Below are positions 5,623 through 18,431 of a stretch of 64,000 nucleotides of DNA, piece by piece; within the stretch, counting starts at the first letter, position 1; each line of letters opens with the position of its first letter. The stretch lies in IMG/VR virus record IMGVR_UViG_3300025030_000042; one strand, given 5' to 3'. The position numbers and the translations under genes are program-made. This stretch comes from a virus (Duplodnaviria > Caudoviricetes). The notes below the pieces were generated by a model. That model was not told where the DNA came from and did not search any database. It was given only the letters and a program-made list of their open reading frames with translations.

Positions 5623-6495
5623 TTAACATTCCTTTTTATTTGGCATTATTGGAGTTTGTGTAATATCTCTTACAACATCTTCTGTTTCGTCGCATATATC
5701 TATGTTATCTGAAAATATATCTTTTTTATTGGCGCTTGATAAATGTTTACACATAATACTTTTATCTATTTCATTATCCACCAAAACATCCAAATAATAT
5801 CCAACTTTTTGTGATTCTTTATCGGTCTCAAAAAACAATGGTGTCTGTTTAATCTCTTTTCTGTGCGGAGGGATTTTAGATTTTTTAACTTCTTCTATTT
5901 TATAGACTTCTATATCAAAGTTATCGTTCAAAAATCTTGTATTTTCTTCCGTCACCTCTAATAATATATAATCTTCTTTCACGGAAATCATTGTTCCATC
6001 TGGAAATATTTTATTTGGATTTGTGAACTCCACATTATTTCCAACATATGTAATATATTCCACAGAAGAACTTAACTGCGGTATTCTTAAAGATTGATTA
6101 GAACCGGTTAAATATTCTACCGATCCAGATAAACTACCGTTTAAATATTTAATGTTCCACGATGGAATATATGAAGTGTTTAAATATGAATTTCCTAATA
6201 AGTTACTATATAAAAACCCTTTATCTCTTGTATTTTGATATTCTTCTCCTCTTTTAACATTTGTTTCAATACCATCAACATTCGGTTGAATATCGTTATA
6301 AGGAGTATTCTCTTTTATTCTCGTTTGAATATCGTTTTGATGTTCTATTAATCCAGCATACGCTCCATCATATATAACATCGTCGTCCATAAAAGCGTAA
6401 TATTCTGGCTTAAACTTGCCTTTGGACAAAAGTTTCTTTCCAAAAGAAGTTAATTCTATTGATATCACCCTTTCTTTTGGGTCAATAAATGACAT
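5623..6495 (-). CDS. Putative baseplate/tail-fibre attachment protein, 290 aa
   Basis: N-terminus IELTSFGKKLLSKGKFKPEYYAFMDDDVIYD resembles the T-x-x-G-x-x-L-L...F-x-D start of tail-collar/fibre-anchoring proteins; directly downstream of the giant baseplate protein. Confidence 0.5.
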   Translation of the reverse strand: MSFIDPKERVISIELTSFGKKLLSKGKFKPEYYAFMDDDVIYDGAYAGLIEHQNDIQTRIKENTPYNDIQPNVDGIETNVKRGEEYQNTRDKGFLYSNLLGNSYLNTSYIPSWNIKYLNGSLSGSVEYLTGSNQSLRIPQLSSSVEYITYVGNNVEFTNPNKIFPDGTMISVKEDYILLEVTEENTRFLNDNFDIEVYKIEEVKKSKIPPHRKEIKQTPLFFETDKESQKVGYYLDVLVDNEIDKSIMCKHLSSANKKDIFSDNIDICDETEDVVRDITQTPIMPNKKEC

Positions 6496-9400
6496 TATTT
6501 ATCTTCTACATCCTTTTTATCTTTTATTGCTAAAGTTGCATCCATTTTTACTAATTCAACCAAAGAAAAGAAATCGTATGGCCAGTTATAACTATAGTCT
6601 GGCTCTACTGCTTTAGAAGCACCTCGACCGCCGCCAATATTAAAATTAAACTTAAATCGATCGTCGTCAAATGAATCGGCGGTTTTAGCAAAATAGTTCC
6701 ATTGTGCTTTTTCTTTAACCTTAAATACCATCCATTGTAGTTTATCTGAAAATGTTCCTTTCAAGAGTTCATTTGATAATAATTTATGAGAAATAGAAAC
6801 CTCTTTTTGTTCTACTTTAACTCCGATTTCTGGTTGAAGGTTTTGCCAAATATCTGCCAAATCTTGTTTTGTAAGTTTGTGTTCAAACTCAAATATATAC
6901 ATAGCAAACGGTCTTATATTCTTATTTTTTATGAAGTCCATTTTAGGAGGAAATACATATTTCTTCATTTTTTCTACCATATCAACAATAGTATCTCCAA
7001 CTTGTTTTTCATTTTCTTTTTTCTGTCTTTTATTTAACGCCAAATCTATTTCTCTTCTACTAATACTGAAAAACTTTTTATTTCCGTTAACCACAACAAA
7101 TGGAACAGCAACGACCGCTTCTTTAATAACTTTCTCGTCAGCTATTCTACCAAGTTTTTTCGGAGTTTTATCAAATCCTAGTAAATCTGCCATAGATTTA
7201 ATTTCATATTTTGGACTACTTCCGCCAGCAAAATAAACGTTATGTCCTGTTGTTTTATTTCCTTTTTTATCTGCACCTTCCAATACCCAATAATCCAAAG
7301 AGTTTGTTTCAATAGAAACAACCCTTTTATTTCCCAAAACACCAGCAGCATAATAATCCGGATATGTCATCGCCGATCCGCTGGCGGCACTATATACCTG
7401 ACCATAATCTATAGCCCCAGCATCTTCACGATAAAATGGATCGGAAATCATATGTTGAATTTTTTTATCCAATGTGTCAACAAAAACGATATCTACAGCA
7501 GCAACAACTGAACCAGTAGTAACATTTGTGTCGACAAATGGATTATTTTCATATACCAATCTAGCAGAAGCGCTAACTCTTTGATATAATGGAATACCTC
7601 CTGGATTAGAAGAACCTACTGTAGAATTTGTCGTACTATTAATAGCTGAAACTAGATTTAAAGCTGCATTAAAATTACTAGTACTTACAATAAAATCTCC
7701 ACTCGCAACTCCACCAACCAAACTAGTTCCATCTATAATTATAGTTTTTGAATCTAACTGTAAATGATCTCCTATATAAACAGTTACTTTTGCGTTTTGT
7801 TTTTCCAATTCTACAAGATTTTCAGATCTATTAAACCAAGAACCAATCGCTTTTTGTTGAGTATTTGTATTAGTAACACTAATAGAACTTTTTCCTTCTG
7901 AATTAAGTTTTGAATCTGGAATATCATTAATGCTAAAATATATTCCTTCGGAACCAGTTATAATATCACCATATTGATGCCACATTCCCCGCGATAATGA
8001 ACCGGTTCCGGAGTTTTCAGAAGGTGCTACTGGAGTTTTATTTTTAAAATTTAAAATAGGAGTTTCCCATTTCGGTTGAATAGACCACACTATTTCACTG
8101 TTTGTTGGATCATCTTCAACTAATATTGGTTCATATTCTTCTGATTTTCCTTTTCCATAGGTGACTTTTTTGACTTTTGTTTTTCCAAGTAAATTAACAG
8201 AAGCACTTAACATCATCCAATTATTTGATGCTGAAATAAATGTAGAAACTAAATCCGAAACGCCCAATGAATTTATAGTAATACCAACTTCATCATCGCG
8301 AGCATTCACTGTTTTATTAAATGCGCTTTTATCTAAATGCGCCAATGTTGTCCAATCCATAATATTGTCGGTTAAATAAACACCACAAACTCCATTTCTT
8401 TCTGTTGGCATTCTCGTATAAGACATAGTTAAATGTGATTGAATTTCATCTATTGTGTATTTTCCAGCACCTTTATATGGATAAAATAAAAGTCTAGCAG
8501 ATCCATATCCATTAAAATATGAAGGCGTAAATGGTTCATATGAATGATGATATGAAACAATTGTGTTTGAAGCAGTAAAATAATGATGCGGAAATACCCA
8601 GGGTGGTCCGAATGCTGAATTTCTATCATACATTTTAGTGTGAGTTCCCTTTAAATCATCCCAATCGGAACCACTAACTTTAAATGTCTTAGAATCTAAA
8701 TAAGAAAACTCTTTCGATGAACGCCTTTCATGATAATCCGTCAAACTTTTAATTTGACCATTGTAAACAGTTACATCCATCCCAAAAAATGATTTAGAAT
8801 CTTCTTCTTTTACTATAATTCCTTCTTGTGGTATAGGTTTAGAAGTAAAAGTAGTAAAGTTTTCATTTTCCAAAAAGAAATCTGGGACTTCTGCTAAAAA
8901 GTTGTGTATAGCGAGTTTATATTTTTGTGATCCTTTGCCTCCCCAAAAGGCAGCTTGATTTGTGGCAGCATCGTTAAATTTTGTTCTTAAAGAAGCAGAA
9001 TGATCTGGTTCCATATCCCAAATCATTTTTTTTGAAATATAATTTTCTGGAGTTACCAACCCTTCAAACGGAATTCTTGAAGAAAATGGACTTGCTAAAA
9101 CCGTTTGCCATTCTACTTTATCATCACTACCAGTAGGATTCACGCCGATTAAACCATATACCTGATCATTAAGCAATAAAGAAGCATCATTTCCATCTAT
9201 TACCCATTGATTCGCCCGAGCGTTGGTGGGAATTCCATAAACACCTCGTGATGTTCTAGAACTAGTTAAATACGGCTCTAATCCATAAGATAAAGCATCT
9301 TCACTACCAACACCTGACTTAAAATCTTCCATAATGTTCGGAGGAATATTTCCATCATATATTGGAAAATCAACTGCTATTCCAGATTTAATGGAATTAT

Positions 9401-16919: not shown

Positions 16920-16967
16920 TGCTACAGTAAATACTATTGAGTAGGAATTTTAATCTTTTTCTATATT

Positions 16968-18431
16968 TTATTTATCTACCCTAAACTTCCAGGATTGCTT
17001 CATTTCGCGATAATCATTTGCTGTTGTCTTATATAAAAAGTTCATTTGATACATATATCCGGGTTCAAATATTTCCATATCTATATCACAGTATGACCCG
17101 CTTTCATCGTAGCCCAAACGAGTGTGATTCATTGATCCCGTGCCCCAATCCAGTACCACCAATCCATCCGTCACTCTTTTGACTCTATAATATAAATCTT
17201 CAATAAAAGCGTTTGTCGCTTGATTTTTAGCCACAGAATATATCGTTGGCTGATGATCCTTGTCACGAACGAAAACTCTAAAGTTCGCTTTCTCTTCTGG
17301 AGAATATACAGGTTTCAGATTTGTTATTGCCGCAACATAGTTAAACGATGGATTAAAGTTGTATGAGTTTAACGATTTTACTGTTATCGCACTACCGGTA
17401 AAATAACAAGTCGTAAAGTTTGCTCCATACCATCTATCGTAAACAACACTTGCGCTGGTGTTGAGAGCAAATGAAGCTGTGTACACTCCAACCGAATGAT
17501 ATCCGCCGGTTACAGGATATCTTGGCGTTATCGTTCGGATTTCGTTTGAACCGGTCGCAGTTGTAAATATTTTGAGGTATATGTTGCCGGTGGAAATGTC
17601 TGGGATATTTTTGAGTTGACCCCGAACATAGTTGTAAAGATACAGTGTATTTAAGTTATCGGTAGCAGAAGCAAGAGAACTGGAGTTATAGAAATTTCCG
17701 CGCGCATCTTTATATGACGAATCCCATCTCGCCTCAATAACTGGTCGCTTAAAGAAAAACTCCGACCCTCTTCCAAAAAACTGTTTGGTATATGATGAAG
17801 ATTGAGCAGTCTCAATACTTCCGGACATATAAATACCAACACCATAGTTGGTAGTTGCTTCACCATTTGAGTTAGCAATCCATTCTTCGGTCAAACTTGT
17901 AATATCCAAAGAAAGATCTTCTATTCCGGTTTCAAAATATTGAGTATATGCTGGAAGAGATAATCCTTCATTGTAGGCGCCTGTGTGATAGTCTCCTCCA
18001 TTATTTGTCCAACCGACATATCCAGACGAACCAGAACTTGCTGTGAGCCAGTTGGAAACACCTTCATCCCAATATCCATCCATATCCAACCCATATCCCT
18101 CGTTCCACGAACGAGAAATAGGTTGAATAGCAAGAGTATACTTTCTTGGGACCGTAAAAGAATGCTCGGCATTATAAAGATTTAAATAAAATGATACCGA
18201 ACCGCTTTGAGGAATAGTTCCATTATCACGACTTTGAGATATTGAAGTTATTGAAAACTCTACTAAAATGCGAGATAACTCGGCAGAAGAACTATTAGCT
18301 TGACCGTAAATAACATATGTTTCCAAAACATCTGCCATTCCAGAGTTAGAAGCGGTCGCACGAGTCGTCAAATCCATACGATAAGCATTTCGTATTGTAT
18401 TATCTTTATTTGCTGTCCATCTTTTAATCAT
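16968..18431 (-). CDS. Virion protein with N-terminal DNRLRE/CBM96-like domain, 487 aa
   Basis: DNTI...SRILVEFSITSI...FYLNLY...QPISRSWNEG pattern typical of DNRLRE-type beta-sandwich domains; position in baseplate cluster. Confidence 0.55.
   Translation of the reverse strand: MIKRWTANKDNTIRNAYRMDLTTRATASNSGMADVLETYVIYGQANSSSAELSRILVEFSITSISQSRDNGTIPQSGSVSFYLNLYNAEHSFTVPRKYTLAIQPISRSWNEGYGLDMDGYWDEGVSNWLTASSGSSGYVGWTNNGGDYHTGAYNEGLSLPAYTQYFETGIEDLSLDITSLTEEWIANSNGEATTNYGVGIYMSGSIETAQSSSYTKQFFGRGSEFFFKRPVIEARWDSSYKDARGNFYNSSSLASATDNLNTLYLYNYVRGQLKNIPDISTGNIYLKIFTTATGSNEIRTITPRYPVTGGYHSVGVYTASFALNTSASVVYDRWYGANFTTCYFTGSAITVKSLNSYNFNPSFNYVAAITNLKPVYSPEEKANFRVFVRDKDHQPTIYSVAKNQATNAFIEDLYYRVKRVTDGLVVLDWGTGSMNHTRLGYDESGSYCDIDMEIFEPGYMYQMNFLYKTTANDYREMKQSWKFRVDK

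Follow-up and report, generated by a model that had tools for sequence, protein, structure and literature searches.

The DNA considered here, called the window below, is the whole 64,000-nucleotide stretch of IMG/VR record IMGVR_UViG_3300025030_000042, from an uncultured aquatic T4-like phage. A few of its virion proteins are strewn with a tripeptide of the form [Thr/Ser]-[Gly/Ala/Ser]-Ser, foremost Thr-Gly-Ser (TGS) and Ser-Gly-Ser (SGS). The excess depends on the order of the residues, exists at the level of the protein, is dispersed, and is confined to these few virion proteins. The motif may be a minimal O-glycosylation sequon on selected proteins at the periphery of the baseplate, a reading to which we give a probability of roughly 45%.

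Under this reading, the enzymes that recognise the motif would be a pair of GT4-family glycosyltransferases (GTs) encoded side by side on the minus strand. The first is a soluble GT4 protein of the GT-B type with 431 amino acids (aa; 62189..63484). The second is the N-terminal part of a 672-aa protein (60171..62189). The pair would place the first sugar on one of the motif hydroxyls, in the cytoplasm, on folded or still assembling proteins. A variable cluster of sugar genes between 31 and 59 kb would then make and add lineage-specific sugars, so that each phage ends up with a glycan coat of its own.

The motif is concentrated in a giant 3474-aa baseplate-peripheral protein (6495..16919, minus strand), which has 32 [ST]GS sites, or 47 if TAS and SAS are included. 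A 487-aa beta-sandwich protein (16968..18431, minus strand) has 7 [ST]GS sites and 4 TAS/SAS sites. In the 290-aa protein (5623..6495, minus strand) a single SGS (residue 123) is followed, seven residues on, by a single TGS (130). Next to these genes lies that of a motif-free, gp6-like baseplate wedge protein of 598 aa (18452..20248, minus strand), which matches phrog_6 at 5e-17 and by this match appears to anchor the locus as a baseplate module.

An earlier note on this DNA, made by eye, had counted 22 TGS and 10 SGS in the giant protein, and exact counts agree. It had guessed that chance would give one or two TGS; the computed expectation is 1.89 (Poisson P ~2e-16), and for SGS it is 2.81. 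The highest TGS count in 20,000 shuffles of the protein was 8, so the suspected enrichment over shuffled sequences is real. No tripeptide in this protein is more over-represented than TGS, and the other five orders of the same three residues occur 2-6 times each. When residues were shuffled only inside blocks of 8-40, the TGS mean was 2.4-2.9 and the maximum 9. Seen from the other side, Ser comes after 22 of the 32 Thr-Gly pairs. Order permutation and block shuffles together rule out a local richness in Ser, Thr and Gly.

In the 487-aa protein the three TGS of the note are all there, and SGS occurs four times where it had found three. The 290-aa protein had also been put among the enriched ones. 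Its SGS and TGS are present (2 observed, 0.16 expected), but are not significant taken alone, so that it is perhaps a third motif protein. The note's finding of no TGS in the neighbouring 1067-, 598-, 1856- and 760-aa proteins holds, SGS is zero there as well, and the 804-aa protein has neither. Pooled, the remaining open reading frames (ORFs) of the window are at background, with 8 [ST][GA]S against 11 expected.

The sites in the giant protein are irregularly spaced, from 4 to 413 residues apart. This bears out that they are dispersed, and rules out a tandem repeat. The motif Ser is written with codons of both the TCN and AGY families (8/41 sites), which argues for selection at the protein level.

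A by-product of composition or codon usage might nevertheless look like a motif, in which case the glycosylation genes would act on some other target, for example glycans of the host surface or the DNA of the phage. We consider this very improbable. What speaks for it is that Thr in TGS over-uses ACC (46%, and 13% overall), and that the best-known roles of glycosyltransferases from phages are in DNA glucosylation and serotype conversion (PMC12619734). But composition is excluded by the order and block-shuffle tests, Ser comes from both codon families, and the surplus of ACC mostly reflects a tendency, not limited to the motif, to avoid NNA codons ahead of GGN. A motif at the DNA level is ruled out on the same two codon grounds. 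The codon-pair bias is itself a feature of the entire window: A-ending codons make up 21% of codons before GGN and 36% overall, and C-ending codons are favoured.

The motif is not peculiar to this phage. Metagenomic homologues of the 3474-aa and 487-aa proteins number from hundreds to thousands, and many of them are from marine samples. For the giant protein a family of about 120 homologues of 2700-4300 aa was assembled. In 119 of these the top tripeptides are TGS (5.1x), SGS (4.2x), TAS (3.9x), GSA (3.2x) and SAS (3.1x).

Taken position by position over 120 homologues, the first residue of the motif is T (5.2x) or S (4.2x), and any other residue stays at or below 1.4x. The second is G, then A (3.9x/3.1x), then S (2.5x), with the rest at about 1x. 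The third is Ser, and Thr reaches only 1.4-1.9x there. The motif can thus be defined as [T/S]-[G>A>S]-S, which is sharp, and its flanks are weak. The note had put a hydrophobic residue in front of the core. The core stands, but the preference at -1 is slight, at 39% over a background of 31% in the family and 15 of 32 sites in the window. Charged residues are depleted near the motif, with Asp at -1 down to 0.5x in the family.

Some sites hardly vary. Residue 940 is SGS in 119/119 homologues, residue 334 is SGS or SAS in 115/119, and residue 415 is TGS in 90/119. Such conserved sites keep their flanking hydroxyls while the middle residue alternates between G, A and S (for example SSS/TSS/SGS/SAS), which makes them unlike a positive-phi glycine turn. 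Other sites come and go. TGS occurs in 270 distinct alignment columns, where the other T/G/S orders occur in 128-168, and many TGS sites are lineage-specific, including those in swapped C-terminal modules.

Most homologues align with the giant protein over no more than its N-terminal ~56%. The C-terminal half of this protein is modular and swapped among relatives, and still has 14 [ST]GS sites. Most motif positions of the 487-aa protein are conserved across the 120 homologues listed of 2830 metagenomic ones. In one relative (G003) the tail sheath (11606-14461) is 951 aa long with an N-terminal extension of ~400 residues, and it shows a modest motif excess of 5 [ST]GS against 1.3 expected.

Conservation of this kind could also mean that the motif is structural. 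It would then be a clade-specific element of beta-sandwich and fibre proteins, a hydroxyl-small-hydroxyl unit for loop capping or for hydrogen bonds between subunits, inherited with these proteins and unrelated to any glycosyltransferase. This is unlikely, if not to be dismissed lightly. Some copies are invariant or nearly so over ~110 sequences at 45% identity, SGS 940 and TGS 415 among them. All motif-bearing proteins are beta-rich, and the lineages that have the motif are related to each other.

Structure models bear on this directly. An AlphaFold model of residues 100-965 of the giant protein (predicted local distance difference test, pLDDT, 81) has two pentraxin/LamG-like jelly rolls with a helical region between them, and Foldseek matches it to PTX3, LamG and tetanus toxin Hc. 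Pfam places a Laminin_G_3 domain further on, at residues 2017-2165. The 487-aa protein folds as a CBM-like jelly roll plus Ig-like sandwiches. Sites 334 and 848 are on the last-strand signature of LamG, 'F-x-G-x-[IV]-D-E', and sites 222 and 750 are on equivalent hairpins of the two jelly rolls, as a structural element would have it.

Most of the 28 sites covered by the two models are in coil, and no one type of turn is common to them. Apart from those on LamG turns, one is in a helix, two are inside strands, and the rest are mostly coil; the modelled sites do not lie closer to the ends of strands than background residues do. A LamG turn therefore accounts for about four sites, and the others are in varied coil, helix and strand and in non-LamG proteins. 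By these models the motif mostly does not look like a structural turn of LamG. The note had proposed such a mapping to find sites in surface loops, and in the models loops are where most of them fall, with roughly four on conserved LamG turns instead.

A control with LamG domains from elsewhere gave little to compare with. Searching for homologues with the LamG piece brought up no stand-alone LamG proteins related to it. Hidden Markov models made from the jelly rolls detected no LamG domain in any control phage, and neither S-PM2 nor HTVC008M has a giant protein of the LamG type.

Further evidence against a structural element is that most sites are in loops of varied context with weak flanks, and that the middle residue is not restricted to Gly. 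Repeated gains of the motif have also occurred at positions and in proteins that are not homologous, namely the C-terminal modules, the fibre repeats of Flavobacterium phage immuto and proteins of Rhodothermus phage RM378. Finally, the baseplate and fibre proteins of T4, KVP40, S-PM2 and HTVC008M have no motif excess. A sequon is favoured because the motif is compact and sharp, and occurs in unrelated folds and swapped modules.

Other phages were compared using whole-proteome scans and an unsupervised ranking of all tripeptides per tail block. In the tail block of RM378, TGS ranks 1st, TAS 2nd and SGS 4th. In that of Microcystis phage Mel-JY01, SGS is 1st and TGS 2nd, and in immuto SGS is 3rd and TGS 4th. 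No motif tripeptide is among the top ten in the tail blocks of T4, KVP40, S-PM2 or HTVC008M. The T4 virion proteins gp5-gp12, gp18, gp23 and gp34-37 show no excess, and the proteome scan found no enrichment in phi38:1, TJE1, S-CBS4 or S-EIVl. A generic trait of phage baseplate and fibre proteins is ruled out by T4, KVP40, S-PM2, HTVC008M and phi38:1.

One fibre of immuto has 60 [ST][GAS]S sites where 20 are expected, with dense arrays of [ST][AG]S[YF]. In the 1053-aa 'tail spike' of that phage (30842-34003) such units come every 3-9 residues, along with 'GDGS-x-LTG' units. Its C-terminus has SHAEG-type repeats and a weak match to the YadA head; no Pfam repeat family covers the arrays.

What the positive phages have in common is the GT4 pair. 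When all window proteins were compared with five near-complete relatives (G001-G005) and immuto, the sugar cluster proved to be nearly all lineage-specific. The only glycosylation genes common to the window, these five relatives, immuto, Mel-JY01 and RM378 are the two adjacent GT4 genes. Pair identity is 43-52% in the relatives and about 30% in immuto. For the 431-aa protein (Pfam PF00534) it is 45-48% in G001-G005, 31% in immuto and 27% in RM378, and a homologue is also present in Mel-JY01. The genes are adjacent in all of these phages. Both members keep the EX7E motif in all lineages, except for the partner in RM378, which is divergent.

The GT4-like domain of the 672-aa protein is its N-terminal ~400 residues. 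The C-terminal GT2 domain is lineage-specific and was gained in the window. In the ESM Atlas, the clusters nearest to the 431-aa protein are 87-100% viral, which suggests that this family is almost exclusively viral. In Mel-JY01 the annotation divides the homologue of the 431-aa protein (3001-4492) into ORFs of 190 and 302 aa, and the motif excess in its tail block is kept; the split could be a frameshift, a sequencing error or real.

In nine phages without the pair, the motif excess is absent or weak. TJE1, S-CBS4 and S-EIVl have only a single distant homologue of the pair. The wedge protein of LR756508, a 484-kb uncultured phage, matches that of the window to the same degree as the wedge proteins of immuto and Mel-JY01 do. 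This phage has GMD, NeuB, four GT29-like genes and one GT4 gene without a partner, and its motif excess is weak, at 25 against 16 expected (~1.5-fold). Taken together, these comparisons indicate that the motif follows the GT4 pair rather than the sugar cluster in its entirety.

The note had tied the motif to the adjacent glycosyltransferase cluster. This does not survive, given that most cluster genes (31421..59478) are absent from motif-bearing relatives. The co-occurrence of motif and glycosylation genes does hold in four lineages, if narrowed down to the pair. That few virion proteins carry the motif, alongside a conserved and virus-specific GT4 pair, further favours the sequon.

The motif might instead be read by some other factor, whether a modifying enzyme of another kind (a kinase or an acyltransferase), a chaperone of tail assembly, or a partner that docks there, for instance a decoration protein. 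A sharp, compact and order-specific motif with weak flanks would suit any factor that reads sequence, and nothing links the GT4 pair physically to the motif proteins. Within the genes of the 64-kb window, however, the pair is the only candidate common to the four lineages, and this makes another reader a rather unlikely explanation.

The cluster (31421..59478, minus strand) was delineated by Pfam and NCBIfam matches. It holds two GMD-type dehydratases, further epimerases, nucleoside diphosphate-sugar and cytidine monophosphate (CMP) transferases, a NeuB-type nonulosonate synthase, two DegT aminotransferases, and formyl-, acetyl- and methyltransferases. Its glycosyltransferases are of the GT2 and TIGR04440 types, plus a GT29-like gene. 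All relatives in which the upstream region is present have epimerase genes.

A simple hydropathy scan found no multi-pass membrane proteins in the cluster, and three ORFs with a single hydrophobic segment. This speaks against glycans being built on a lipid carrier and exported, as would befit host surface glycans, and favours stepwise addition to a soluble acceptor. A gene of the ThyA/dCMP-hydroxymethylase family is absent from three relatives rated complete by CheckV and from RM378. T4-type glycosylation of DNA is thus unlikely as the other target, although other DNA chemistries are possible.

The GT29-like gene encodes a 207-aa protein (51960-52583, minus strand) that matches Pfam Glyco_transf_29, a sialyltransferase family, at 5.5e-23. 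The NeuB-type synthase is nearby and a cytidylyltransferase is ~16 kb off. LR756508 has four tblastn matches to this protein at 322-326 kb, either copies or fragments, beside NeuB and GMD. Directly downstream of the NeuB-type gene, within the cluster, is a GIY-YIG/NUMOD3 homing-endonuclease gene (48096-48764, minus strand). Two paralogous TIGR04440-type glycosyltransferases (36799-37761 and 38489-39415, minus strand) flank a CmcI-type O-methyltransferase, and the same block has a PAPS-reductase-like gene (34072-34779).

A number of observations weigh against the sequon. The four positive lineages are related, with wedge proteins ~30% identical, so the link between pair and motif may be a single inherited trait of one clade, and no clade member that has clearly lost the GT4 pair was found. 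LR756508, with one GT4 of two and its 1.5-fold excess, is ambiguous. The GT4 genes are 42-45 kb upstream of the motif genes. They resemble generic GT4 enzymes, and a protein-binding domain was not detected. About 4 of the 32 sites (222/750 and 334/848) are, in the models, at conserved LamG turn glycines and plainly structural. The 1067- and 804-aa neighbours, which are probably outer fibre or spike proteins, are motif-free. The last point also narrows a claim of the note, which was that the motif marks the outer baseplate and fibre proteins, since it does not mark all of the outer ones.

The order of the genes is simple, as all long ORFs of the window are on the minus strand. First in the order of transcription is the sugar and glycosyltransferase block, which takes up more than 30 kb, from 64 kb down to 31 kb. 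Downstream of this come a 760-aa protein, a 307-aa protein and a poorly conserved 1856-aa protein. The gp6-like wedge is next, followed by the 487-aa, 3474-aa and 290-aa proteins, and beyond these are two more large proteins of 1067 aa and at least 804 aa.

The wedge protein is ~29-31% identical over its full length to those of immuto, Mel-JY01 and LR756508. Searches for close cultured relatives gave no megablast match for the giant gene and no tblastn match for the 487-aa protein; the N-terminal 1950 residues of the giant protein have only a weak match, in immuto. The phage thus appears to be without a close cultured relative. Sequence searches of the PDB with the 3474-aa and 487-aa proteins gave no matches.

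The sequon may reach well beyond this one phage. Quite possibly, though we put it at less than even, it is read by the virus-specific GT4 pair across a very large aquatic 'Far-T4'-like clade, with the cluster supplying a serotype-like glycan layer. The clade is taken here to include thousands of metagenomic relatives as well as RM378, immuto and Mel-JY01. The Far-T4 paper makes no mention of glycosyl genes (PMC4360716). The literature searched does not describe the motif or the GT4 pair. Nor did it yield sequon-directed glycosylation of tailed-phage virions; the only case met with was that of the mycobacteriophages, in the form in which it is cited elsewhere.

If true, glycan-coated baseplates would be common among abundant aquatic phages. 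This would have a bearing on adsorption, grazing, immune recognition and the stickiness of particles. It would also mean that glycosylated virion proteins can be predicted from sequence alone. The idea is open to test, since three cultured phages have both the motif and the GT4 pair.

Short glycosylation signals are not new. Cytoplasmic HMW1C reads N-X-S/T, and the general O-glycosylation system of Bacteroidota reads D-[ST]-[AILVMT] in the periplasm. The motif shares with both a signal of three residues, weak flanks and many sites in large surface proteins. Unlike the HMW1C type, N-X-S/T is not enriched in the giant protein (42 observed, 45.4 expected). Unlike the Bacteroidota type, Asp is depleted at -1, the residue at +1 is G, A or S, and virions are assembled in the cytoplasm.

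GtfA/GtfB are two GT-B proteins that form a cytoplasmic O-linked N-acetylglucosamine (O-GlcNAc) transferase, which acts on the serine-rich-repeat adhesins of Gram-positive bacteria. Ser-Ala-Ser-type units abound in the acceptor, and the partner is a catalytically dead GT-B (DUF1975) that binds this acceptor. Here too, two adjacent GT-B proteins are conserved together, and the immuto fibre has its [ST][AG]S[YF] arrays. The partner however keeps EX7E in all lineages but RM378, DUF1975 was not detected in it, and the sites in the window do not form long tandem repeats. The similarity of the GT4 proteins is only generic: the best PDB matches are BshA-like enzymes at 1e-6, and Gtf1 is marginal (E = 0.057).

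The O-glycosylation of flagellin with nonulosonic acids by Maf-type enzymes, for which sites have been mapped in Campylobacter (PMC4975691), is likewise a soluble cytoplasmic pathway with a NeuB-type synthase, a CMP-transferase and many Ser/Thr acceptors. In contrast, conservation among the motif-bearing relatives does not extend to the NeuB, CMP-transferase and GT29-like genes. No Maf homologue turned up, although a search aimed at Maf was not made.

Closest in kind are mycobacteriophages (Freeman et al. 2023), which, as set out in a passage of PMC12619734, use their own glycosyltransferases to put glycans on the C-terminal ends of capsid and tail-tube subunits. They differ in that the candidate tripeptide is dispersed in baseplate-peripheral proteins and is known here from sequence alone; the window does not include the capsid and tube genes. 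Common to both is the proposal that soluble glycosyltransferases encoded by the phage modify its own structural proteins in the cytoplasm. In the window, the phage-encoded enzymes are the GT4 pair and the GT2, TIGR04440 and GT29-like proteins.

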